From positions 185,907 through 249,906 of the forward strand of contig DJWX01000011.1 of the NCBI GenBank assembly GCA_002448285.1: 64,000 nucleotides of DNA, read 5' to 3'. The DNA comes from Candidatus Ruminimicrobiellum ovillum. Its GTDB lineage: Bacteria; Elusimicrobiota; Endomicrobiia; Endomicrobiales; Endomicrobiaceae. The notes under the pieces are model-generated. The model was not told where the DNA came from and did not search any database. It saw only the letters and a program-made list of their open reading frames with translations. Within the stretch, counting starts at the first letter, position 1. Every line of letters starts with the position of its first letter. The translations under genes and the position numbers were made by a program. This document shows, in pieces, positions 14,094 through 24,114 of the stretch.

Positions 14094-16251
14094 CGTTTGT
14101 CTGCCCGATAAATTTTTGTAAATCCGGAAGTGATACATTTGACGATTTTGTCAAATCGCATACACACTTAAAACCGTTTTTTTCAGCTATAAAAGTTGCC
14201 TTTGACGGAAATTTTGAAATGTTATTAAAAGTCTTATACGAATTAAATTTCAAGTCAAATGAATTTGTTTTTATAAACTCCTTAAACATTCCGCTAGCGG
14301 AATCTATCTTTATTGTGTATTCGTTATTTTGATAAATAATTTCTTTCCCTTTTTGTTTCATATCCGAAGAGAACAATAAAGTTATAAAATCTTTTGATAA
14401 TATAAGTTTTGCAAAGTCAAACATGGATGTAAAATCTTCGGGAATATTTTCTTCCATTGCTTGCGGATAAAACTCAATATTATCGTTTATATAAACACTT
14501 CCGCCCTGAAAAGATAGTTTCGGAGGAAATTCAAAAAGCATTCCGTATTTTCTTGCAAACAGAACGGACATGTAAGAAGACACTGATACGCCCTTCATTT
14601 TTATGTTAATTTTATAACCGGACTTTAAAGATGCGATTCTGTGAAAATTCAATATTGCTCTTTCGGCAACAACTTTATATTTTTCTTGTTGCAAATCTTT
14701 TTCCTGTGCAAATTTTTTATCCAACAAATTCAATTTTTTCTTTGCGGTTTTGGAACCCAAATCGTAAGCAACGGCATATGCTAACCACGATTGAGATAAT
14801 TTTTTAAGTTCTATACTTATATCCCCCAAATGCTCGTAGATATCTCTATCAAAAACTTTGGGTTGTGTGTTTGCCGCAGCGAAAATATATTTTTCTGCCA
14901 ACTCATAATTTCTTTTTTTGTAATATAACCAACCCAACGAATCCAAGTATGCCGGAACATTCGGTTGCAACTTCACGACTTTTATAAGCATTTGTTCGGC
15001 TTCGTCCAAATGTATCGTCTTTTCCGTATAACTGTAAGCCAAATAATTTAGAGCTTTAACATTATCCGGTTCAACTGCTATTATTTCCTTTAAGAGCTGT
15101 TCTGCTTTATTAAAATTTTTAAGTTTATCGTATGAAAGAGCCAAATAAAATTTAGCTTCGTTAAAATCCGGTTTTAAATATAAAGATTCTTCTAAAACCT
15201 TTTTAGCTTTTTCATATTTTTTTGAATCTATATAATTTAAACCTGCCAAATATAATATTTCGGAATTTAACGGTTCTTTTTCCAATGCATTGTCAAGATA
15301 TTTTTCCGCGGATTTATAATCCTGTTTTAATGCATAATAATAACCTAACCTTGTATAATTTGCCGCCGTAGGTTCCAATTTTACTATATGTTCAAAAACA
15401 TCTATCGCATCATCAATTTTATCTTGTTTTTCATATATCATTCCCAATAAATAATTTAAAATAACATTGTTCGGTGCGGTTTCTTTTGCTTTTAAAACTA
15501 TTTCTTCGGCTTCGTCATATTTTTTTTCTTCGAAATAACATTTGCCGAGATATGTTAATATTGCAACATTTCCCGAAAAAAGTTTTGCATATTCTTTATA
15601 TTCCTGTATTGCAAGTTTATATTCTTTTTTGTTTTCATAAATTCTGGCTCTTGCCAAATAACCTTCCTGTGCTTCGGATTTTATTTCATTAACTTTTTTA
15701 TATGATTGCAGAGCTTCATCGAGCATACCGAGTTTTTCCTGCGTTAAACCCAGTTGAAAATATCCTTCTGCGGATTCAGGTTGTTGTTCCAAAAATTTTG
15801 TCCAATAATCAATTGATTCTTTTAGTTTGTTGTCGGAATAGTAATATGCGGCCAAATATACGGTTGCCATTTCGTTTTCGGGTTCAAGTTCCAAAACTCT
15901 TTCCCAACATTGTTTTGCCGAAAGCATTTCATTTATTGAAAGATAAAAAGAACCTAAAAACATTTGTGTTTTAACATTATCGTTTTCAAGTTCTTGAAGT
16001 TTTTTTGCACTCTCCAATGCTTTTGTAACATCTCCCTGCTGCAAATAAACAAGTGCTAAATCTTTATAAACGGTTGTAGCGTCCGTATCGTAAGATAAAG
16101 TTCTTTCATATTCGGAAACAGCAACATCCGATTTTCCTTTTTTTAATGCAAGTAATCCCTTTATATAGGATTTATATCCGCTGTAACTTGCATAAGAAAA
16201 GCTTTCAAAACAGAATATCAATGCAACCGTTAAACTTAATATTTTTTTCAT
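14065..16251 (-). CDS. Secreted TPR-repeat protein with a ~206-aa non-TPR C-terminal domain (possibly LolB/DUF4292-like)
   Basis: N-terminal signal sequence and at least 10 TPR-like 34-aa repeats (AxxxYxxAL..P patterns). The C-terminal beta-rich domain starts at about aa 523. Confidence 0.6.
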   Translation of the reverse strand: MKKILSLTVALIFCFESFSYASYSGYKSYIKGLLALKKGKSDVAVSEYERTLSYDTDATTVYKDLALVYLQQGDVTKALESAKKLQELENDNVKTQMFLGSFYLSINEMLSAKQCWERVLELEPENEMATVYLAAYYYSDNKLKESIDYWTKFLEQQPESAEGYFQLGLTQEKLGMLDEALQSYKKVNEIKSEAQEGYLARARIYENKKEYKLAIQEYKEYAKLFSGNVAILTYLGKCYFEEKKYDEAEEIVLKAKETAPNNVILNYLLGMIYEKQDKIDDAIDVFEHIVKLEPTAANYTRLGYYYALKQDYKSAEKYLDNALEKEPLNSEILYLAGLNYIDSKKYEKAKKVLEESLYLKPDFNEAKFYLALSYDKLKNFNKAEQLLKEIIAVEPDNVKALNYLAYSYTEKTIHLDEAEQMLIKVVKLQPNVPAYLDSLGWLYYKKRNYELAEKYIFAAANTQPKVFDRDIYEHLGDISIELKKLSQSWLAYAVAYDLGSKTAKKKLNLLDKKFAQEKDLQQEKYKVVAERAILNFHRIASLKSGYKINIKMKGVSVSSYMSVLFARKYGMLFEFPPKLSFQGGSVYINDNIEFYPQAMEENIPEDFTSMFDFAKLILSKDFITLLFSSDMKQKGKEIIYQNNEYTIKIDSASGMFKEFIKTNSFDLKFNSYKTFNNISKFPSKATFIAEKNGFKCVCDLTKSSNVSLPDLQKFIGQTNDDSKSTGQD

Positions 16252-16306
16252 TATTTTCTCTTTATAAGTTTTTAATTATTTTATCATTTTGTACAACAAA
16301 ATACTA

Positions 16307-17437
16307 TTAACTGAAAAACTTTTTAAAGAAACTGTCGTTTTTCTGAACGGCATCTTTCGGAACTTCACCCATGGTTTTTGCAAATTCAAACAATGCTTTT
16401 TTCTGTTCCGAATTTAAACTTTTCGGAACATTTATATTAACTTTAACATATAAATCTCCCCTTATTCCTCTTCTGCCGAGTTTAGGGAAACCTTGATCTC
16501 TAACTCTTAATATCGTTCCGGGTTGTGTTCCCGGGGCAATTTTAACTTTAACTTTTCCGTCTAAGACAGGCACATCATATTCCATTCCCAAAGATGCTTG
16601 TGCGAATGTAAGTCTTATTTCGGTATGTAAATCGTCTCCTTCTCTTACAAAACCGGGCTGTTTTTTCAAATGTATAACAACATACAAATCTCCCGGCTGA
16701 GCACCTTTCGGACCTGCATCTCCCGCGCCGGAAACTCTTAATGTACTGCCGCCGTTAACACCTTGAGGTATTCTTACTTTTATTGTTTTATTTGTTCTTA
16801 TTGTTCCCGTTCCTCTGCAAGTAGGACAAGGATTATCTATAATTTGTCCCTCGCCATGACATTTGGGACATGTTTGAGTGAAAGAGAAAAAGCCTTGACT
16901 AACCCTAACCTGTCCCCTTCCTTTACATTGAGGACATGTTTTCGGAGTTGTTCCCGCTTTTGCTCCTGTTCCTCCGCAAGTTTGACAAGTATCTCTTTTA
17001 GTAACATCCAAAGATACTTCTTTACCTGTCATTGCATCAAGCATAGATATATCCAAATCGTATCTTAAATCTGCACCTTTTCTGTATTGTCTTTGAGCCC
17101 CGCCCGACGATCTTCCCGCTCTGCCGCCGCCGAATATGTCGCCGAATATGTCGCCGAATATGTCGCCCATATCTCCCATATTACCGAAACCGCCCGCACC
17201 GGCTCCGCCCATACCGTTCATACCTTCGTGACCGAATGCATCATATTGCTGTTTCTTTTGCGGATTAGACAAAACGTCGTAAGCTTCATTTATCTCTTTA
17301 AACTTTTCTTCGGCTTCTTTATTTCCCGGGTTTCTGTCGGGATGATATTTTATTGCCAAGTGTCTGTATGCTTTTTTTATTTCGTCGGCCGATGCTCCTT
17401 TTTGAACACCGAGCACTTCATAAAAATCTTTTTTCAT
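16307..17437 (-). CDS. dnaJ: Chaperone DnaJ (Hsp40)
   Basis: J-domain DFYEVLGV...HPDRN, G/F-rich linker, and four CxxCxGxG zinc motifs. Confidence 0.95.
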
Positions 17438-17475
17438 TTTTTCCCTCTTATATTTGAGCGAAGCGACTTCATCTT
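17429..17475 (-). repeat. Direct repeat copy 1 (dnaJ leader and start codon)
   Basis: A 33-nt block (17443-17475) is identical to 18778-18810. The similarity continues through a T-run (T5 vs T3), the ATG and AAAAAA. Confidence 0.9.
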
Positions 17476-17493
17476 AAAATTGCTTCGCAAATT

Positions 17494-18774
17494 TTATTTA
17501 AACTTCTTTGAAGCTATTTTTTTCTCAACTTCACTTAAAGAAAAATTTAACGGTATAACCAACTGACCGTTATAATTATATGCTCCGTATTTGTTTGCAA
17601 CTTTACTTACTATATAATACGGAAATTTTTCGTTTGCCGTATAATATTCTTTTATAAACGTATATTGGTTAGGAACAATTAACGAATTGTTACCGATTTC
17701 CGCAATACCGTAAAAGTTATTTTGTAAAATTTTAAATCTCGGAAAATTTTGACTTATACCGAGTGCATTTTTTTCTATATTATCATATTCGGGAACAACC
17801 GTTTGCTCCAAAACAGGATCAAATACGGAATATTTATTTTGATTTCTTACAATTAATAATAATCTTTTTTCATATCCGTTGTTTGTTATAACATTTCTTA
17901 AAGTTGTTTCTATAGGATAAATACTTTTAACTATAAACCGACCAAACGGATCAAATATTTTATACTCATAAGGATTAAATAATGATCTGCCGTAAAAATA
18001 ATGCTGATTTGCATATTCAATAGTATCTAACTGCGAATACTTAAATACCCTTATATTATTTTGTTCTTCTTCCGATTTGATAAAAAACATATTCCATGTT
18101 TGTGTTCCGTCAAGTTCTGTTTTTCCATAAGCCGTAACAGCTCCAGGAATACGAAATGTTAATTTTTTATCAAATTCTTTATCCAACATAATAAAATTAC
18201 CGTTAGTAATTTTTTCCGTAACGGGTAAATTTATTTGAGGAACAGTTGTCGGATATTTTCCTAAAACAGGTATTTCCGGATGAGTAACCGTAACATTATT
18301 ATTTTCATCCATAGGTTTATGATCTTTCAATTTTGTAGATATTTTGTCATATTGTTTTGTTAAATTATCAATATTTTTAACATAAATTTTAACATTACTT
18401 AATGCTGCTTCTTTTTGTTTTGGTGTATTTGCCTCGTAATATTGGTCTATTCGTTGCTGCAACAACATCCATTGTATACCGATATAACATCCGTCTTTGT
18501 GACTACCGTTCTTATATCCGCATTCAGGACAAGTTGCTAATTTTTTTGGTATTAATTCATTCAACTGAGCATCATAATTGCTAAAATCATAATCATTTGA
18601 TACTGTTTCTTTTCTGTATGAAGGGCACCAAGTTTCATGTCCGTTTTCTTTTTCGCAATATCCGCAAACAGCTTTACTTACCCCAGGAGCACTCCAAGCA
18701 AAAACCATATTTTGAACCGATGTTGCTAAAAACATCATCGTTAACAAAATAATTCCTAATTTTATTTTTTTCAT
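17494..18774 (-). CDS. Secreted WG-repeat protein with two N-terminal CxxC-x8/9-C motifs (function unknown)
   Basis: Signal peptide MKKIKLGIILLTMMFLATSVQNMVFA. Motifs CGYCEKENGHETWC and CPECGYKNGSHKDGC. C-terminal WG/KWG-like repeats (KYGAYNYNGQLVIPLNF, FYGIAEIGNNSLIVPNQY). I placed the start at the second Met (18774), which has a GAGGG RBS. Confidence 0.6.
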   Translation of the reverse strand: MKKIKLGIILLTMMFLATSVQNMVFAWSAPGVSKAVCGYCEKENGHETWCPSYRKETVSNDYDFSNYDAQLNELIPKKLATCPECGYKNGSHKDGCYIGIQWMLLQQRIDQYYEANTPKQKEAALSNVKIYVKNIDNLTKQYDKISTKLKDHKPMDENNNVTVTHPEIPVLGKYPTTVPQINLPVTEKITNGNFIMLDKEFDKKLTFRIPGAVTAYGKTELDGTQTWNMFFIKSEEEQNNIRVFKYSQLDTIEYANQHYFYGRSLFNPYEYKIFDPFGRFIVKSIYPIETTLRNVITNNGYEKRLLLIVRNQNKYSVFDPVLEQTVVPEYDNIEKNALGISQNFPRFKILQNNFYGIAEIGNNSLIVPNQYTFIKEYYTANEKFPYYIVSKVANKYGAYNYNGQLVIPLNFSLSEVEKKIASKKFK

Positions 18775-18810
18775 TTTCCCTCTTATATTTGAGCGAAGCG
18801 ACTTCATCTT
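18765..18810 (-). repeat. Direct repeat copy 2 (leader and start codon of the WG-repeat gene)
   Basis: See copy 1. Together the two copies bracket exactly the 1.3-kb WG-repeat gene. Confidence 0.9.
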
Positions 18811-19017
18811 TTTAATTTTAACTTTGTATTTGCCTCAATCGAGTACCAACCGCTACCGCTTTCTTTTTGTACACTTCATTCGGTAAATACTTCGTTAAAA
18901 TTTAAAATCTAAGAAGTCTTACAAAGCAACAAACAATGTATTTTGCTTCGCAATTTTTCAAATAAAATCATTAAAAAATATCTTTTAATACTCTTTAAAA
19001 ATTTTATCTTTTAACTA

Positions 19018-19046
19018 CGAGATACCGCATCAAGTGCGGTATGACA
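19018..19046. repeat. Hairpin repeat B1 (CGAGAT-stem-TCAAG-stem-GACA)
   Basis: cgag-ataccgca-tcaag-tgcggtat-gaca: an 8-bp stem with the same flanks as B3. Confidence 0.8.
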
Positions 19047-19172
19047 ATATACTTCTTTTTAAACTTGCGAAACTATCAACAGGCTAAAACGACAATTTAT
19101 AATTTACAATGTATAATGTACAATTAACAACAAACACAAATGACTAAACAAATTTTTCTTTTTAAACTCGGA

Positions 19173-19205
19173 AACTACCAACAGGCTTTTTGCCTGTTGA
19201 TAGTT
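19173..19205 (+). terminator. 14-bp stem hairpin (terminator-like on the plus strand)
   Basis: aactaccaacaggc-ttttt-gcctgttgatagtt, followed by ctaattttt. The right arm is the exact reverse complement of 19071-19084. Confidence 0.4.
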
Positions 19206-19218
19206 CTAATTTTTAATA

Positions 19219-19245
19219 GATTCCGTGTCGTAGCACGGAATGACA
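19219..19245. repeat. Hairpin repeat B2
   Basis: g-attccgtg-tcgtag-cacggaat-gaca: an 8-bp stem with compensatory changes relative to B1 and B3. Confidence 0.75.
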
Positions 19246-19249
19246 ACAA

Positions 19250-19278
19250 CGAGATCCCGTATCAAGTACGGGATGACA
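19250..19278. repeat. Hairpin repeat B3
   Basis: cgag-atcccgta-tcaag-tacgggat-gaca: an 8-bp stem with the same loop and flanks as B1 but a different, still complementary, stem sequence. Confidence 0.8.
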
Positions 19279-19320
19279 TCGTCTTTTGAATAACTAAAGA
19301 TTTTGAACTTTAGGCTAGGC

Positions 19321-19365
19321 ACACCGCACCGAAGTTTACATTGAAAAGTAAATGAGGTGCGGTGT
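19321..19365 (-). other. Long GC-rich hairpin 27 nt downstream of the dnaK stop
   Basis: acaccgcacc (19321-19330) pairs with ggtgcggtgt (19356-19365). There is an inner tttac/gtaaa stem. No T-run follows on either strand. Confidence 0.6.
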
Positions 19366-19391
19366 AACGAAGCATAAATTCAAAAGATTAG

Positions 19392-21272
19392 TTATTTTTT
19401 ATCGTCTACAACTTCAGCATCAACTACATTATCGTCATTATTTCCACCGGCATTATTATTTGCCTGTGCTCCTGCATTTGCACCTGCAGCTCCGGCTTGA
19501 GCATTAGCCTGTTGCTGTTGTTGTGCAGCTTTATAAACTTCTTCAGCTAATTTATGTGAAGCATCGGAAAGTTTATCTTTAGCTTCTTTAATCTTTGCTA
19601 TATCGCCGCCTTTAATTGCTTCTTTTGTGTCGTTGATAGCTTGTTCGATTTTCAATCTTTCATCTTGAGAAATTTTGTCACCATGTTCTTTCAAACTCTT
19701 TTCTGTTGCATAAACTAAATTGTCGGCTTCGTTTTTAGCTTCGATTTCTTCTTTTTTCTTTTTATCGTCTGCAGCATATTGCTCTGCTTCTTTAACATAT
19801 TTGTCTATATCTTCTTTCGAAAGTTTTGTTGAAGAAGTAATCTTAATTGACTGCTCTTTACCTGTTCCCAAATCTTTTGCGGATACATGCAAAATACCGC
19901 TTGCATCGATATCGAATGTAACTTCAATTTGAGGAACTCCTCTCGGCGCAGGTGGTATTCCGTCAAGAGTAAATCTTCCCAACGAAACATTATCTTTTGC
20001 CATAGGTCTTTCACCTTGCAAAATGTGTATTTCCACTCCCGGCTGATTATCTTGTGCGGTAGAAAATACTTGAGATTTCTTTACAGGAATTGTTGTATTT
20101 CTATCTATGATAGGAGTTCTGACATTTCCTAAAGTTTCAAGACCTAATGTTAAAGGTGTAACATCAAGTAAAAGAATATCTTTTACATCACCTGTTAAAA
20201 CGGCTGCTTGAACTGCTGCACCGTTTGAAACACATTCCATCGGGTCAATTCCTCTTTCAACAATTTTGCCTACATAGTTTTCAACAAATTTTTGAACTAT
20301 AGGCATTCTTGTAGGACCGCCGACGAGAATAACTTTTGTTAAATCCGCGCTTGTAAGTTTTGCATCGCTTATTGCCTGGTCGATAGATGCTTTACATCTT
20401 TGAACTATAGGATCTACCAAGTTTTCAAGTGTTGCTCTTGTAAGTTTCATTGCCAAATGTTTCGGGCCTGTAGCATCTGCTGTAATAAACGGTAAATTGA
20501 TATCTGTTTCAAGAATGTTGGAAAGCTCGATTTTTGCTTTTTCTGCAGCTTCCTGCAATCTTTGAACAGCCATTTTATCGTTTCTCAAATCTATACCGTT
20601 TTCTTTCTTAAATGTTTCAGCGATGTAATCTATAATTGCTTTATCCATATCGGTTCCGCCGAGTTTTGTATCTCCGGATGTAGACAATACTTCAAATGTT
20701 CCCTCAGAACCCATTTCCATTATTGTACAATCCAAAGTTCCGCCACCGAGATCGAATACCAATATTTTCTGTTCTTTACCTACTTTATCTATACCGTAAG
20801 CAAGAGCTGCTGCCGTAGGTTCGTTAACAAGTCTTACCACTTCCAAACCTGCAATTGCACCTGCATCTTTTGTTGCTTGTCTTTGGTGATCGTTAAAGTA
20901 TGCAGGAACCGTAATAACAGCTTTATCTACAGTTGTTCCCAAATATGCTTCCGCATCTTTTTTAATTTTCTGTAAAATAAAACCTGAAAGTTGTTGAGGA
21001 GTAAATTCTTTACCGTTAATTTTGTATTTGTAGTCTTCTCCCATTCTTCTTTTAAATGCGGAAACTGTTCCTTCAGGATTTGTTACTGCCTGTCTTCTTG
21101 CAGGTTCTCCAACCAACAATTGTCCGTCTTTTGTAAATGCTACATAAGAAGGAAAAGCTTTTCCTCCCAAAGTTGTTCCTTCCGCTGAAGGGATAAGTGT
21201 TACTTTACCGCCTTCCATAACTGCCGCTGCCGAGTTCGATGTACCCAAATCAATTCCAATAATCTTAGACAT
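19392..21272 (-). CDS. dnaK: Chaperone DnaK (Hsp70)
   Basis: [30 protein letters not shown], and a C-terminal Q/A/N-rich tail. Confidence 0.97.
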
Positions 21273-21305
21273 TTTCTTGTCCTCCTAATTTATATTTTTT
21301 ACTTT

Positions 21306-21959
21306 TTATTTTTCTTCGGAAATTTCTTCTTCTGTTACTTTTTCTTCTTCTTTCTTCTTTGCCACTTTTACCCTTGCAGGTCTCATAAGTTTCCCGTTTA
21401 GTTTATATCCGTTTTGATAAACCGCAAGTACTGTTCCTTCTTCCGCTTCATCCGTTTCAACCTGATCCAACGCTTCGCATACATTGTGGTCGAACGGTTT
21501 ATTCAAACATTCTATTTTTTCTACACCTTCTTCCTTCAACATTTTGCTGAATTCGTTGTATATCATTTCAAGACCGACTTTAATACTTTTTAAATCTTGC
21601 CCTGCTCTGACACTTATCATTGCCTGTTCGAAAACATCGTATATACTTATATTTCTTTCCAATATTTTTGCTTTACCGAAATTTATATATTCACCTTTTT
21701 CTTTTTCCGTTCTGTTTCTTAATGTTTGATATTCGGCAACACTTCTTAAATATTCCGCTTTATATTCATCTGCCTGTTTTTGTTTTTCTTCCAAAGACTG
21801 TTTCAAAATATCAAGTTCCGATAATTTTACTTCTCTTGCTATATCTTCAACTTTTTCAGCTACTTTTTCTTCGGCTTTTTCGATTTTTTCTTCTGCAATC
21901 TTTTCTGCTTTCGCTTCTATTTTTTGTTCTTCTTTTTCTTTATTCTTCATCTTGCTCAT
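21306..21959 (-). CDS. grpE: Nucleotide exchange factor GrpE
   Basis: K/E-rich N-terminus, a YLRSVAEYQTLRNRTEKEK helix, and a C-terminal beta domain ...GYKLNGKLMRPARVKV. Confidence 0.9.
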   Translation of the reverse strand: MSKMKNKEKEEQKIEAKAEKIAEEKIEKAEEKVAEKVEDIAREVKLSELDILKQSLEEKQKQADEYKAEYLRSVAEYQTLRNRTEKEKGEYINFGKAKILERNISIYDVFEQAMISVRAGQDLKSIKVGLEMIYNEFSKMLKEEGVEKIECLNKPFDHNVCEALDQVETDEAEEGTVLAVYQNGYKLNGKLMRPARVKVAKKKEEEKVTEEEISEEK

Positions 21960-22992
21960 CTCCCATTTTTAATAAGAATCCGTTAACTATATTTGAAACA
22001 GAATTTACCAAAGCCATCATTTTATCGTAATCCATTCTTTTAGGACCTATTATTCCCAATACTCCGACTATTTTATCGCCATACGAATAAGAAGTCTTTA
22101 CTACACTTAAATTCTTCAATTCACTTAAATCCTGTCCGCCTATTTTTACATTTACGGTTGCTTCATCCAAATCTTTACCTATTATTTCTATAAGTCTGTC
22201 TTTATCTTCGTTCAGTTTCATTAAACTTTTTGCAGATTCGAAATCCGTAAAATCCGGAACAGACAAAACATTTGATGTTCCGTCGACATAAATATCTTCC
22301 TGAATACTATCTATAACGCTGCATATTTGTTCTGCAAGTTGTAACATATCGTTTTGTTTATCTTGATACTTCTCTACTTCAACAATTAATCTTTTTGATG
22401 CTTCTTCTATGGTTAAACCTCTTAACTTATTATTTAAGAATTTTTTCAATTCGTATAATTCTTCGCTGTCAACACTTAAATTTATCATTTTATGTTTAAC
22501 AATACCCGTTTTAGTTAAAAGTATAACCATAACCTGACTTTTTGAAACTTGCATCAATTCTATGTTTCTTATCTCGTTAACTTTTGTTTTCGGAGCTGTA
22601 ATAAATCCCGTATAATTAGAAAGTCCGGACAATATTTTAGATGTTTGAGATAAAAGACTTTCTATTTCTTTTGTCTTTTTTTCGTATTCCTGTTTAATTC
22701 TTTCTTCTTCTTCAACCGCCAATCTTTGTAATTCAACCAACGAATTAACATAAGCTTTATAACCTGCATCCGTAGGTATTCTGCCGGCAGATGTATGTGG
22801 ATGAGTTAAATATCCGTCCTTTTCAAGTTCTGCCATCAAATTTCTTAATGTAGCAGGTGACAAATTAAATTTATATTTTTGTTCCAAAACACTTGAACCG
22901 ACAGGCTTCCCTGTTTTTATATACTCGTGAATAACGGCATATAAAACTCTGGCTTTTCTTTCCTGTAAAATACTTTCAGATATTTGTCTCAT
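21940..22992 (-). CDS. hrcA: Heat-inducible transcription repressor HrcA
   Basis: N-terminal winged helix: ERKARVLYAVIHEYIKTGKPVGSSVL...SPATLRNLMAELEKDGYLTHPHTSAGRIPT. A CIRCE operator lies upstream. Confidence 0.92.
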   Translation of the reverse strand: MRQISESILQERKARVLYAVIHEYIKTGKPVGSSVLEQKYKFNLSPATLRNLMAELEKDGYLTHPHTSAGRIPTDAGYKAYVNSLVELQRLAVEEEERIKQEYEKKTKEIESLLSQTSKILSGLSNYTGFITAPKTKVNEIRNIELMQVSKSQVMVILLTKTGIVKHKMINLSVDSEELYELKKFLNNKLRGLTIEEASKRLIVEVEKYQDKQNDMLQLAEQICSVIDSIQEDIYVDGTSNVLSVPDFTDFESAKSLMKLNEDKDRLIEIIGKDLDEATVNVKIGGQDLSELKNLSVVKTSYSYGDKIVGVLGIIGPKRMDYDKMMALVNSVSNIVNGFLLKMGDEQDEE

Positions 22993-23002
22993 ACAAACCT
23001 CT

Positions 23003-23023
23003 AAAAATTACTTCGTAATTTTT
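23003..23023 (-). other. Perfect 9-bp AT-rich hairpin with a GAA triloop, abutting the hrcA Shine-Dalgarno sequence
   Basis: Plus strand aaaaattac-ttc-gtaattttt. On the mRNA strand the 3' arm is followed immediately by AGAGGTTTGTATG. Confidence 0.6.
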
Positions 23024-23068
23024 GAAGATTGGAGAATTTGAGATTTGGAAGATTGGAAATTTAAATGT

Positions 23069-23089
23069 AAAATTTGCTTCGCAAATTTT
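23069..23089 (-). other. Perfect 9-bp AT-rich hairpin with a GAA triloop in the hrcA leader
   Basis: Plus strand aaaatttgc-ttc-gcaaatttt. Confidence 0.6.
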
Positions 23090-23154
23090 GTTATTGGTTA
23101 TTCTTCCTCTTTTCCTCTAATCTTCTATTTTTCTAATTTAGCACTCTAACATTA

Positions 23155-23181
23155 TTAGCACTTAAATCTTACAAGTGCTAA
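23155..23181 (-). promoter_or_regulatory. CIRCE operator (HrcA binding site)
   Basis: TTAGCACTT-N9-AAGTGCTAA, compared with the consensus TTAGCACTC-N9-GAGTGCTAA. An extra consensus half-site TTAGCACTC lies at 23138-23146. Confidence 0.9.
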
Positions 23182-23209
23182 TTATAACACAGTGTTTAAA
23201 AATTGTCAA
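23181..23209 (-). promoter_or_regulatory. Consensus sigma-70 promoter of the hrcA-grpE-dnaK operon
   Basis: Minus strand reads TTGACA-17 nt-TATAAT (-35 at 23204-23209, -10 at 23181-23186). The -10 overlaps CIRCE by 1 nt. Confidence 0.8.
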
Positions 23210-23242
23210 GTTTTTATTTTTTATCGACGAGAAGAACAAAAC

Positions 23243-23283
23243 AAAAAAAATCTGCATCGGTCAAATATAATAACCGGTGCAGA
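23243..23283 (-). terminator. Rho-independent terminator ending the pilus operon
   Basis: tctgcaccgg / ccgatgcaga stem with 1 mismatch, followed on the minus strand by a T8 run. Confidence 0.65.
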
Positions 23284-23337
23284 TAATATAGCTAAGTTAT
23301 GAAAAAGATATTAATAATCAGTTCAAATATTAAACAA

Positions 23338-24114
23338 TTACAATATTTCCATATTAATTTGATCTAACAAAACTCTGATTCTTATATCGTTAGGCTGCAA
23401 ACTATATGCCAATTCAGCCAAATTTCTCGCTTCTCCCAATTTTGTTGCCTTAAAACATTTTACGGCATCATCATAAAACTTTTTAACTCTTTTGCTTGTT
23501 GTTTCCTGTAAAACATAACATCTGTTTAATCCTACATAATCGACAAATTTAGGATATTTTTGATATAGTTTATATATATAATCCGATGATTTTTTAAACT
23601 TTTCTTTAACAAAGAAATCAAGAGAATCTATAAAAAGATTTTTGTCTCCGGTATCTTCTATAGCATACAAAACCAACTCTTTTTCATTTTCCAATCTTGT
23701 TTTAAATGCTTCTATCGGTTCATTCGGTGAAAGATCTTGTATTCTTTTTATAAATAAAAAACCTTCATAACAATTTCCTTCTTTAACAGCTCTTCTAAGT
23801 TCTATCACCAAATCATTAACCAAAGTTTTTTTATAGTAAGATTCTTTTTCTTTTAATAACAAAATTTTATTTCTCATTTCGTTAGCTTTTTCGTTGTCAA
23901 TAGAAACCTCAAAAATTTTATTAAGATATTTCTCGGCTCCGTCAAAATCACCTTCGCAATAACAATTTTTGGCTCTTTGTAATTCTTTATAATAGGCATT
24001 CTTTTCTATTTTTCTATTCTCATTACTGTTTGAAGTATTTCTTGTTATTGCAGTACACAAAGACGACAAAAAGACAATTAAAGAAAAACTGATTAATAAT
24101 TTTTTCATTATCAT
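23338..24114 (-). CDS. Secreted helical-repeat (TPR-like) protein, last gene of the pilus operon
   Basis: Signal sequence MIMKKLLISFSLIVFLSSLCTA. TPR-like helices at both ends (AEKYLNKIFEVSIDNEKA, ARNLAELAYSLQPNDIRI). No motif that diagnoses a family. Confidence 0.4.
   Translation of the reverse strand: MIMKKLLISFSLIVFLSSLCTAITRNTSNSNENRKIEKNAYYKELQRAKNCYCEGDFDGAEKYLNKIFEVSIDNEKANEMRNKILLLKEKESYYKKTLVNDLVIELRRAVKEGNCYEGFLFIKRIQDLSPNEPIEAFKTRLENEKELVLYAIEDTGDKNLFIDSLDFFVKEKFKKSSDYIYKLYQKYPKFVDYVGLNRCYVLQETTSKRVKKFYDDAVKCFKATKLGEARNLAELAYSLQPNDIRIRVLLDQINMEIL

Follow-up and report, generated by a model that had tools for sequence, protein, structure and literature searches.

We analysed a 64,000-nt stretch, the window, of the genome of Candidatus Ruminimicrobiellum ovillum (assembly GCA_002448285.1, contig DJWX01000011.1), in which an accessory open reading frame (ORF) for a 426-aa protein sits between the chaperone genes dnaK and dnaJ, flanked by two copies of a 46-nt direct repeat. 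We think it probable, if by no means certain, that illegitimate recombination fused this ORF, an occupant of a recombination hotspot, to a copy of the dnaJ leader, and that the body of a palindromic repeat, element X, was later lost from the downstream leader. A first-pass annotation of the same DNA had seen here the footprint of an insertion or duplication that recruited the dnaJ translation signals. That interpretation is partly supported: empty sites in relatives and native leaders of the ORF speak for it, whereas neither a discrete mobile cassette nor a repeat of purely dnaJ origin could be upheld.

A direct repeat around a single gene

The genome carrying the window (G000; 1.83 Mb, 27 contigs) has the locus on its contig C2. 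Between dnaJ and dnaK lie the following features, in window coordinates:

16307-17437, minus strand: dnaJ (376 aa; Pfam DnaJ, DnaJ_CXXCXGXG and DnaJ_C)
17430-17475, minus strand: repeat copy B2, the leader proximal to dnaJ; the X 3' arm survives in it as a 20-25-nt remnant (AAGATGAAGTCGCTTCGCT), with CAAATATAAGAGGGAAAAA and ATGAAAAA following in that order
17476-17493, minus strand: A' hairpin, AAAATTTGCGAAGCAATTTT, with a GAA triloop, directly 3' of the ORF stop
17494-18774, minus strand: accessory ORF (426 aa from its MKK start)
18765-18810, minus strand: repeat copy B1, the leader now serving the ORF; identical to B2 save for an A-run 2 nt shorter before the ATG
18786-18936, minus strand: element X, a ~150-nt imperfect palindrome whose 3' arm forms the first ~25 nt of B1
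18939-18957, minus strand: A hairpin, AAAAATTGCGAAGCAAAA, the upstream partner of A'
18811-19391: spacer from dnaK to the leader, 581 bp, without an ORF and crowded with dispersed small repeats
19392-21272, minus strand: dnaK (626 aa; Pfam HSP70 at 4e-225)

A repeat search of the window aligned 17430-17475 with 18765-18810 over 46 nt, at 91% identity without gaps. The exact 33-nt core, CCCTCTTATATTTGAGCGAAGCGACTTCATCTT, lies at 17443-17475 and 18778-18810, as had been reported, and these are its only two sites in the whole 1.83-Mb genome even when up to three mismatches are allowed. On the gene (minus) strand the dnaJ copy reads AAGATGAAGTCGCTTCGCTCAAATATAAGAGGG + A5 + ATGAAAAAA and the ORF copy AAGATGAAGTCGCTTCGCTCAAATATAAGAGGG + A3 + ATGAAAAAA, which bears out the earlier description of T5 and T3 runs followed by a common ATG and first Lys codons; the shorter A-run of B1 is the native spacing of the ORF leader. 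Exactly one gene, that of the 426-aa protein, is bracketed by B1 and B2, again as first described, in a unit of 1335 bp that leaves a gap of 56 nt between ORF and dnaJ.

The repeat had been taken for a duplicated dnaJ leader. This is true of its last ~20 nt, the only dnaJ-specific portion, which holds the Shine-Dalgarno (SD) sequence, the ATG and the Lys codons. Its first ~20-25 nt (AAGATGAAGTCGCTTCGCT) are not dnaJ-specific; they are the 3' arm of the multi-copy element X, since the outermost X helix pairs GACTTC of the 5' arm with GAAGTC in B (GGATTT/AAATCC takes this place in other copies). The locus-specific part of the leader is CAAATATAAGAGGGAAAA plus the start-codon region.

The exact 426-aa protein is encoded on five public metagenome contigs, and in the three whose DNA was examined (JGI 3300002641, ENA ERZ1756109 and ENA ERZ28612950) both junctions and the 56-nt gap are letter-identical to the window, so that the repeat structure, recovered in three independent assemblies, is no assembly artefact. 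This confirmation came through the exact-protein look-up; exact-pattern scans of JGI metagenome contigs for the A'-B2 junction and for the B^ORF junction (where ^ marks a join without intervening sequence) gave no matches.

The repeat also contains an upstream ATG, whose reading in the first-pass annotation was literally correct: in the dnaJ copy it opens a 12-codon upstream ORF (uORF) that overlaps the dnaJ ATG as ATGA, and in the other copy it is in frame, giving a 437-aa ORF (17494-18807). The doubt then attached to it was well placed. No SD sequence precedes this ATG; it lies in the X 3' arm, where most X copies read GATAAA, and is thus a copy-specific variant of X; the uORF is absent from the dnaJ leaders of related genomes (G009, G006, G008) and from the downstream leader of locus L049; and homologues of the accessory ORF all start at MKK or MNK. 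On these grounds we rejected a functional uORF, and the small frame is most likely fortuitous.

The ORF carries a recruited dnaJ leader

Leaders homologous to B precede dnaJ in species that lack the ORF, such as G009 (AAGTTGCTTAGCTTAATATAAAGAGG; AAGTTGCTTAGCTTAATATAAAGAGGAAGATATG), and B, to judge from these sequences, is natively the dnaJ leader. The ORF has a different leader of its own in G017, G001, L052/L053 and L054/L055, which makes the dnaJ-type leader before the ORF a recruited copy. In G017 this native leader reads ...TATAATGTGTCAATGTTATAAGTTTTTTAAGAGGGAAAATGAAAAAAATAAAA (TTTTTTAAGAGGGAAAATGAAAAAAATAAAA), a module also found in L052/L053; that of G001 is TTTTTTAGAGGTAAAATG.

Set beside the dnaJ leader (AAATATAAGAGGGAAAAAATGAAAAAAGAT), the ORF leader of the window (AAATATAAGAGGGAAAATGAAAAAAATAAAA) is a composite of both types. 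To the left of TAAGAGGGAAAA it is dnaJ-type (CAAATA); to the right it has the ORF-type A-run and the coding sequence. The crossover is thereby placed within the 12-nt identity of the two ribosome-binding sites, each of which has TAAGAGGGAAAA followed by ATGAAAAAA; TAAGAGGGAAAA is present just twice in the G000 genome. A join within so short an identity points to illegitimate recombination and not to a self-mobile cassette.

Empty and occupied sites in relatives

Relatives bear the names of uncultured rumen Elusimicrobia (RUG240; RGIG6590 from sheep rumen). ORF homologues occur in just two of 40 related genomes. At least five lineages other than that of the window have one in the dnaK-dnaJ interval, mostly on the upstream side of the leader module. 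Six arrangements were found:

(a) G002, G012: other cargo - A - X - B - dnaJ, with a single B identical to that of the window
(b) G001: the ORF homologue, preceded by a 136-aa ORF and provided with its own leader, then A - X - B - dnaJ; the contig that encodes homologue P0001 (GCA_016648615.1), with a 96%-identical ORF and then a 183-bp gap to dnaJ, fits this layout
(c) G017, L052/L053: a hairpin, two TATAAT boxes, ...TTTTTTA(A)GAG..AAAATG, then the ORF, with independent promoter and leader
(d) L054/L055: ORF 214 nt after dnaK, with a third leader type
(e) L049/L050: cargo - A - X - B^ORF - A - (X fragment) - A - X' - B' - dnaJ
(f) G000 and the three metagenome contigs: A - X - B^ORF - A' - B - dnaJ

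The comparison with relatives that had been suggested as a check did yield single-copy sites without the gene. In G002 and G012, the closest species, whose DnaJ proteins are 98.7% and 98.1% identical to that of G000, one leader copy stands directly before dnaJ. When the 1335-bp unit is removed from G000 in silico, the remainder is colinear with both genomes and ~97% identical from the A hairpin onward; against (a) and the dnaJ side of (b), 205-214 of 230 positions match, and the differences lie nearly all upstream of A. Orthologues of dnaJ in same-genus genomes are 96-99% identical, and a search for mosaic identity along dnaJ, as the mark of a crossover, gave no clear breakpoint. The ORF is not new to this locus; what is specific to G000 is the side of the leader module on which it sits. 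In every lineage the A hairpin immediately follows the ORF, usually with the palindromic X after it.

The G017 sequence is a 4-kb contig (C128, ONEP01000068.1) binned in another genus, with dnaK 96% and ORF 95% identical to those of the window; it has probably been mis-binned and comes from a species in the genus to which the window belongs.

Probable loss of the X body from the downstream leader

L049/L050 have the same B^ORF junction as the window, with full-length, diverged leader modules (~190 nt) on both sides of the ORF. Modules of the L049 type run GCAATTTT|ACATTG...(X)...AAAATTAAA|AAGATGAAG, with AAAATTAAA|AAGATG at the second boundary. For A'-B2 in the window the sequence is GCAATTTTAAGATGAAG; if such a module loses its X body in one deletion, the result is exactly the junction observed, GCAATTTTAAGATG. 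Given these whole modules on both sides of the ORF, the 46-nt repeat is probably what remained after the downstream palindrome lost its body. X-less dnaJ leaders with a short X 3' remnant are also present in G009, G010 and G013, and loss of the X body thus seems recurrent, unless A'-B2 was imported from a strain of that kind.

A hotspot for accessory genes

Within the genus, the distance between dnaK and dnaJ and the cargo it holds vary widely; sister species were compared in G002, G006, G008, G010, G012 and G013 (loci L033-L041).

G009: 283 bp
G010: 1.5 kb
G000: 2.0 kb
G002: 2.1 kb
G001: 2.3 kb
G012: 2.5 kb; putAbiC
G013: 4.0 kb; NTase_sub_bind (HEPN-like) and MNT nucleotidyltransferase
G008: 4.3 kb; AbiJ with DUF7014, and an FRG-domain protein
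G006: 5.1 kb; FRG, DUF2971, and an N6_N4 methylase with a RAMA domain
G003: AAA_14/DUF4143 ATPase upstream of dnaJ

This spacer is a recombination hotspot for accessory genes, mostly of phage-defence type, inside a heat-shock operon. Core-gene-flanked variable hotspots and defence islands have been described in the pangenomes of E. coli, Pseudomonas and Vibrio. As in those, two core genes, here dnaK and dnaJ, bracket a segment that differs between close relatives, the spacer is rich in genes of the Abi, restriction-modification and toxin-antitoxin types, and exchange is possible through flanking homology with no need of an integrase. Unlike them, the hotspot lies inside the hrcA-grpE-dnaK-dnaJ operon, between the partners of one chaperone machine, and its occupant in the window is a secreted orphan protein and no recognisable defence gene.

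Element X and other small repeats

Element X has 36 BLAST loci in G000, all intergenic, spread over ~20 contigs and in both orientations (same as both flanking genes in 11, opposite to both in 14, mixed in 10), and 58 hits to a covariance model; further copies lie, for example, at C18:54930-55080, C9:596-746 and C2:12855-13005. Its 3' end is mostly less than ~20 nt from a gene start or stop. Covariance-model hits number 37-55 in the majority of genomes of the genus and 34 in one other genus of the family; outside the family there were zero hits in any genome searched. Twenty copies align to a single long imperfect hairpin with an RNAalifold consensus of 31 pairs, in which 94.8% of alignment cells are paired (32-42% with a slid partner), a value reached by none of 500 shuffles, and 13 of the 31 stem pairs have compensatory changes. 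The window copy has a predicted fold of -34.2 kcal/mol (z -3.8). No longer element with X ends was found among the BLAST hits of X, and a search of the G000 genome for a Y1 transposase found none.

Short, non-coding, multi-copy, intergenic and imperfectly palindromic, X is like a miniature inverted-repeat transposable element (MITE) or ERIC, and it is a structured repeat family not described before, in uncultured rumen Elusimicrobia. ERIC, Correia (NEMIS), RUP and REPIN are small, MITE-like palindromic intergenic repeats. X resembles them in its length of ~150 nt, its dozens of non-coding intergenic copies per genome in both orientations, a stem maintained by compensatory changes, and its ability to form part of the leaders of neighbouring genes. 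It differs in having no sequence relation to them and no Rfam match, in its limitation to one family of rumen Elusimicrobia and in that no partner transposase was identified, the genome lacking a Y1/RAYT transposase.

The module order is A-X-B before the ORF and A'-B, without X, between the ORF stop and dnaJ. The A module upstream of the ORF, AAATTGCGAAGCAA, is a GAA-triloop hairpin, and its core, TTGCGAAGCAA, has 15 copies in the G000 genome, three of them in this locus including one in the hrcA leader. Folding of 17420-17500 (-15.1 kcal/mol, z -2.4) predicts a compact 13-bp hairpin between GCGAAGC of A' and GCTTCGC of B2, ~20 nt before the SD sequence.

The GAA-triloop hairpin (A)AAATTTGCGAAGCAAATTT(T) recurs between genes of G000, with 15 copies against ~0.6 expected by chance, among them those at 17480-17490, 18943-18953 and 23074-23084; in the hrcA leader and before a leuD-like gene (C5:96029) each is followed by a similar TTTTACATTT...TTCCAATCTTC tract. 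REP-like hairpins, GTCATNCCG...CTTGA...CGGNATCTCG, lie at 19018-19046 and 19219-19278, with dozens of near-identical copies genome-wide, several of them directly upstream of X copies.

The accessory protein and its alleles

The 426-aa protein has a signal peptide, two C-x2-C-x5/6-H-x3-C motifs that are invariant among its homologues, long helices at residues 97-149 that form a stalk, then a disordered linker and, at the C-terminus, a domain predicted to be all-beta. Its family is tiny, with ten homologues among 5.8 billion proteins, none of them named and none with a Pfam domain, and searches against Pfam (E <= 10), NCBIfam and PADLOC gave no match; sequence features place it in an orphan family of secreted proteins. 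An AlphaFold2 model (predicted local distance difference test, pLDDT, 70.7) drew just weak beta-propeller matches in Foldseek (E 1e-4, template modelling score, TM, ~0.2), and such matches to a predicted fold are not enough to name a function. The gene had been labelled a WG-repeat gene. Pfam PF14903 (WG_beta_rep) does not match the protein even at E <= 10, and a sub-threshold match appears only in a paralogue on G000 contig C21 (19.8 bits, cut-off 25.6); the label expresses a plausible resemblance, and membership is not demonstrated.

The C21 paralogue (C21:61726-63417, locus L007), of at least 564 aa, has the signal peptide and the first CxxC...H...C motif (VCGYCERASGHETWCPSYR) in common with the ORF, followed by a Ser-rich linker and a different C-terminal region; the shared N-terminal module is thus common to secreted proteins of this organism.

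Family members sit at the dnaK-dnaJ locus, and distant ones in unrelated single-copy contexts. Two allele types can be told apart, type I in G000, G017 and P0001 and type II in G001, L049 and P0002-P0004, which at the nucleotide level are >90% identical in their first ~170 and last ~130 nt and 40-60% identical in the middle. Each type is found with each leader type. Mosaic alleles combined with both leaders indicate that the locus has repeatedly recombined through its conserved ends and modules.

Context in the heat-shock operon

Upstream of dnaK the operon continues as follows:

21306-21959, minus strand: grpE
21940-22992, minus strand: hrcA
23155-23181, minus strand: CIRCE (controlling inverted repeat of chaperone expression) operator, TTAGCACTTAAATCTTACAAGTGCTAA, abutting the sigma-70 promoter
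23181-23209, minus strand: operon promoter 5' of hrcA-grpE-dnaK, TTGACA-17-TATAAT, 12 of 12 positions

The site at 23155-23181 matches the CIRCE consensus (TTAGCACTC-N9-GAGTGCTAA) with two mismatches, against a chance expectation of 0.02 matches, and by these sequence criteria hrcA-grpE-dnaK qualifies as a CIRCE/HrcA-controlled heat-shock operon. No sigma-70-like site was found on the minus strand of the spacer between dnaK and the leader, and an Rfam search of 16000-23500 at E <= 1 gave no match in the locus.

Just 3' of the dnaK stop lies a hairpin (19301-19385, minus strand; ACACCGCACC...GGTGCGGTGT) with no T-run after it. G001 has kept this hairpin through two compensating changes (ACACCGTGCC...GGCACGGTGT), and it may serve in processing, stability or attenuation between dnaK and the genes that follow. 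In G007 (locus L019) dnaJ does not adjoin dnaK and has its own CIRCE-like inverted repeat, TTAGCACTTAAACATAATAAGTGCTAA, ~75 nt before its start, followed by an A-like hairpin, which indicates that dnaJ can be an independent HrcA-controlled unit in the genus.

Discussion

In our reading, the dnaK-dnaJ spacer of this genus is a hotspot that swaps accessory genes between two conserved chaperone genes, and the ORF is a recurrent passenger, usually with its own promoter and leader and placed upstream of the dnaJ leader module (A, X, B). In the lineage of the window, and in L049, it would have been joined to a copy of the dnaJ leader at the SD/ATG microhomology. The likeliest route may be homology-facilitated illegitimate recombination (HFIR), in which homology on one side anchors the incoming DNA and the other side is joined illegitimately: an 'empty' recipient, A-X-B-dnaJ, would take up a donor, leader-ORF-A-X-B-dnaJ, anchored in dnaJ. 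The outcome would be no different if sister chromatids had exchanged unequally. The first product, A-X-B^ORF-A-X-B-dnaJ, would be the form that persists in L049/L050, and subsequent loss of the X body from the downstream copy would have left A'-B2 and shrunk the flanking repeat to 46 nt. The duplication may have allowed the ORF to settle directly before dnaJ while dnaJ retained a complete SD leader. With no promoter of its own now, the ORF would use the dnaJ-type SD sequence and presumably be transcribed with, or like, dnaJ, in which case we would expect it to be co-expressed upon heat shock.

HFIR is known from natural transformation in Acinetobacter and Streptococcus. The term is used in PMC6382021 and PMC8116780. 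The G000 unit resembles such cases, and other gene insertions or duplications mediated by microhomology in bacteria, in that one junction lies in a short identity (12 nt; 20/22 nt with an indel), that the other side is ordinary homology (A-X-B-dnaJ), and that relocated or foreign DNA is flanked by a duplicated resident stretch with no recombinase. It differs in that its pathway is inferred from sequence only, and in that the microhomology is the ribosome-binding site itself, so that translation signals were swapped too.

Several points weigh against this reconstruction. The direction and order of its events are putative. The same B^ORF junction is found in L049 with a very different ORF allele (47% amino-acid identity), and the fusion may thus be an old one that both inherited, in which case recombination between the repeats would have removed the gene from G002 and G012. 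A direct precursor, with a type I allele and full A-X-B modules on both sides, was not recovered, and one contig, GCA_016648615.1, is a candidate. Loss of the X body would have to have happened more than once, given the X-less leaders of G009, G010 and G013, or alternatively A'-B2 came in from an X-less strain. Finally, the HFIR route presumes natural competence in these uncultured bacteria.

Could the polarity be the reverse? The arrangement with a leader module on either side of the gene would then be ancestral in this group of species, and the empty sites of G002 and G012 would have arisen when homologous recombination between the repeats deleted the gene, the repeat marking a deletion-prone state and no fresh insertion in G000. 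Direct repeats of 46-190 nt are classic deletion substrates, the B^ORF junction is common to G000 (type I) and L049/L050 (type II) despite the distance between their alleles, and the dnaJ leader of G002, G012 and G001 is of the B type that precedes the ORF in L049, where dnaJ itself has a diverged B'. However, B is homologous to the dnaJ leaders of ORF-free species, so the B^ORF fusion must at some point have been a derived state; a native ORF leader with a promoter of its own is known for each allele type; and in G001 the ORF lies upstream of a single A-X-B, an outcome that deletion between flanking repeats cannot yield. We consider this reversal unlikely, and it would alter the timing of the events, not the nature of the repeat.

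It is very unlikely, in our view, that the two leaders are instead copies of a cis-regulatory RNA, such as a weak SD-masking thermometer (of the ROSE or fourU kind) or a regulator's binding site, whose identity selection or gene conversion maintains to keep the secreted protein under common regulation with DnaJ. The setting, a heat-shock operon with CIRCE, would suit such an element, as would the 13-bp A'-B2 hairpin, and a weak hairpin can pair CUUCGCUC with the SD sequence GAGGGAA. Yet this SD-masking fold reaches only -6.5 kcal/mol (z -1.0), and is equalled by 38 of 200 shuffles; a repeat with 58 copies supplies, with its end, half of the leader; the dnaJ leaders of sister species differ widely, too much for a covariation test; Rfam has no match in the region; and identity after a recent duplication needs no selection.

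A site-specific mobile cassette, integron-like or MITE-mediated, in which the ORF and A (or A+X, as an attC-like site) were moved by a recombinase or transposase acting in trans and the 46-nt repeat is a duplicated attachment site, is highly improbable. The A hairpin that follows the ORF in every lineage, usually with X behind it, superficially recalls an ORF with its attC, and X is multi-copy and structured. But the first-pass term 'cassette', in its mobile-element sense, does not survive the finding that no recombinase or transposase lies in or near the unit: G000 has only two tyrosine recombinases (PF00589), both on contig C26 and none in the window or near the locus on C2, and no Y1 transposase. 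X copies are scattered on many contigs in both orientations and form no co-oriented arrays, the 33-nt core is found nowhere else in the genome, the ORF family keeps to this locus or, in its distant members, to unrelated single-copy contexts, and the left junction falls in the SD/ATG microhomology and not at the hairpin. A repeat search found no inverted repeats at the ends of the 1.3-kb unit.

Two specific candidates of this kind were tried and rejected. The unit does resemble an integron cassette, as a promoterless ORF followed by an imperfect palindrome and placed downstream of a resident promoter; unlike one, it has no integron integrase (no IntI-type recombinase near the locus) and no array, its palindromes being dispersed in both orientations, and its junction lies in the SD/ATG and not at a core site. 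An insertion sequence or transposon with target-site duplication was set aside because the unit encodes one secreted protein and no transposase, and its flanks measure 46 nt against the typical 2-14 bp. Lastly, a chimeric join of strain variants, conceivable for a strain-variable, repeat-rich locus in what is probably a metagenome-assembled genome (27 contigs), is barely credible when three assemblies from different projects and assemblers agree at both junctions and across the 56-nt gap, and when the identity of the leader types at the junction, 12 nt, is too short to cause a mis-join in a k-mer graph.

Illegitimate recombination at the ribosome-binding site remains the explanation that we favour, and the repeat-flanked unit is ordinary recombination-driven genome plasticity in an unusual place. 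One may go further, and ask whether the dnaK-dnaJ space is a dedicated plug-in site in the CIRCE/HrcA operon, with a portable A-X-B module that admits and releases cargo without silencing dnaJ and places that cargo under stress control. We think this quite unlikely. If it were true, abortive-infection, restriction-modification, HEPN/MNT and secreted-protein cargo would respond to proteotoxic stress, the chaperones would be induced in step with phage defence or surface remodelling, and the duplicated leader in the window would be a frozen snapshot of the mechanism.

To conclude, the locus provides a natural example of a gene that gained the ribosome-binding leader of another by recombination in a microhomology of Shine-Dalgarno sequence and start codon, for which donor-type, recipient-type and intermediate arrangements all survive in related genomes. 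It also reveals an accessory and defence hotspot inside the otherwise highly conserved hrcA-grpE-dnaK-dnaJ operon, and such by-products, the hotspot and the X repeat family, arguably outweigh the repeat itself in interest. Annotators should be warned that a repeat element makes up half of the leader and that the gene does not start at the upstream ATG. Whilst no paradigm is altered, these findings offer a defined locus at which to study gene flux in an uncultured lineage.

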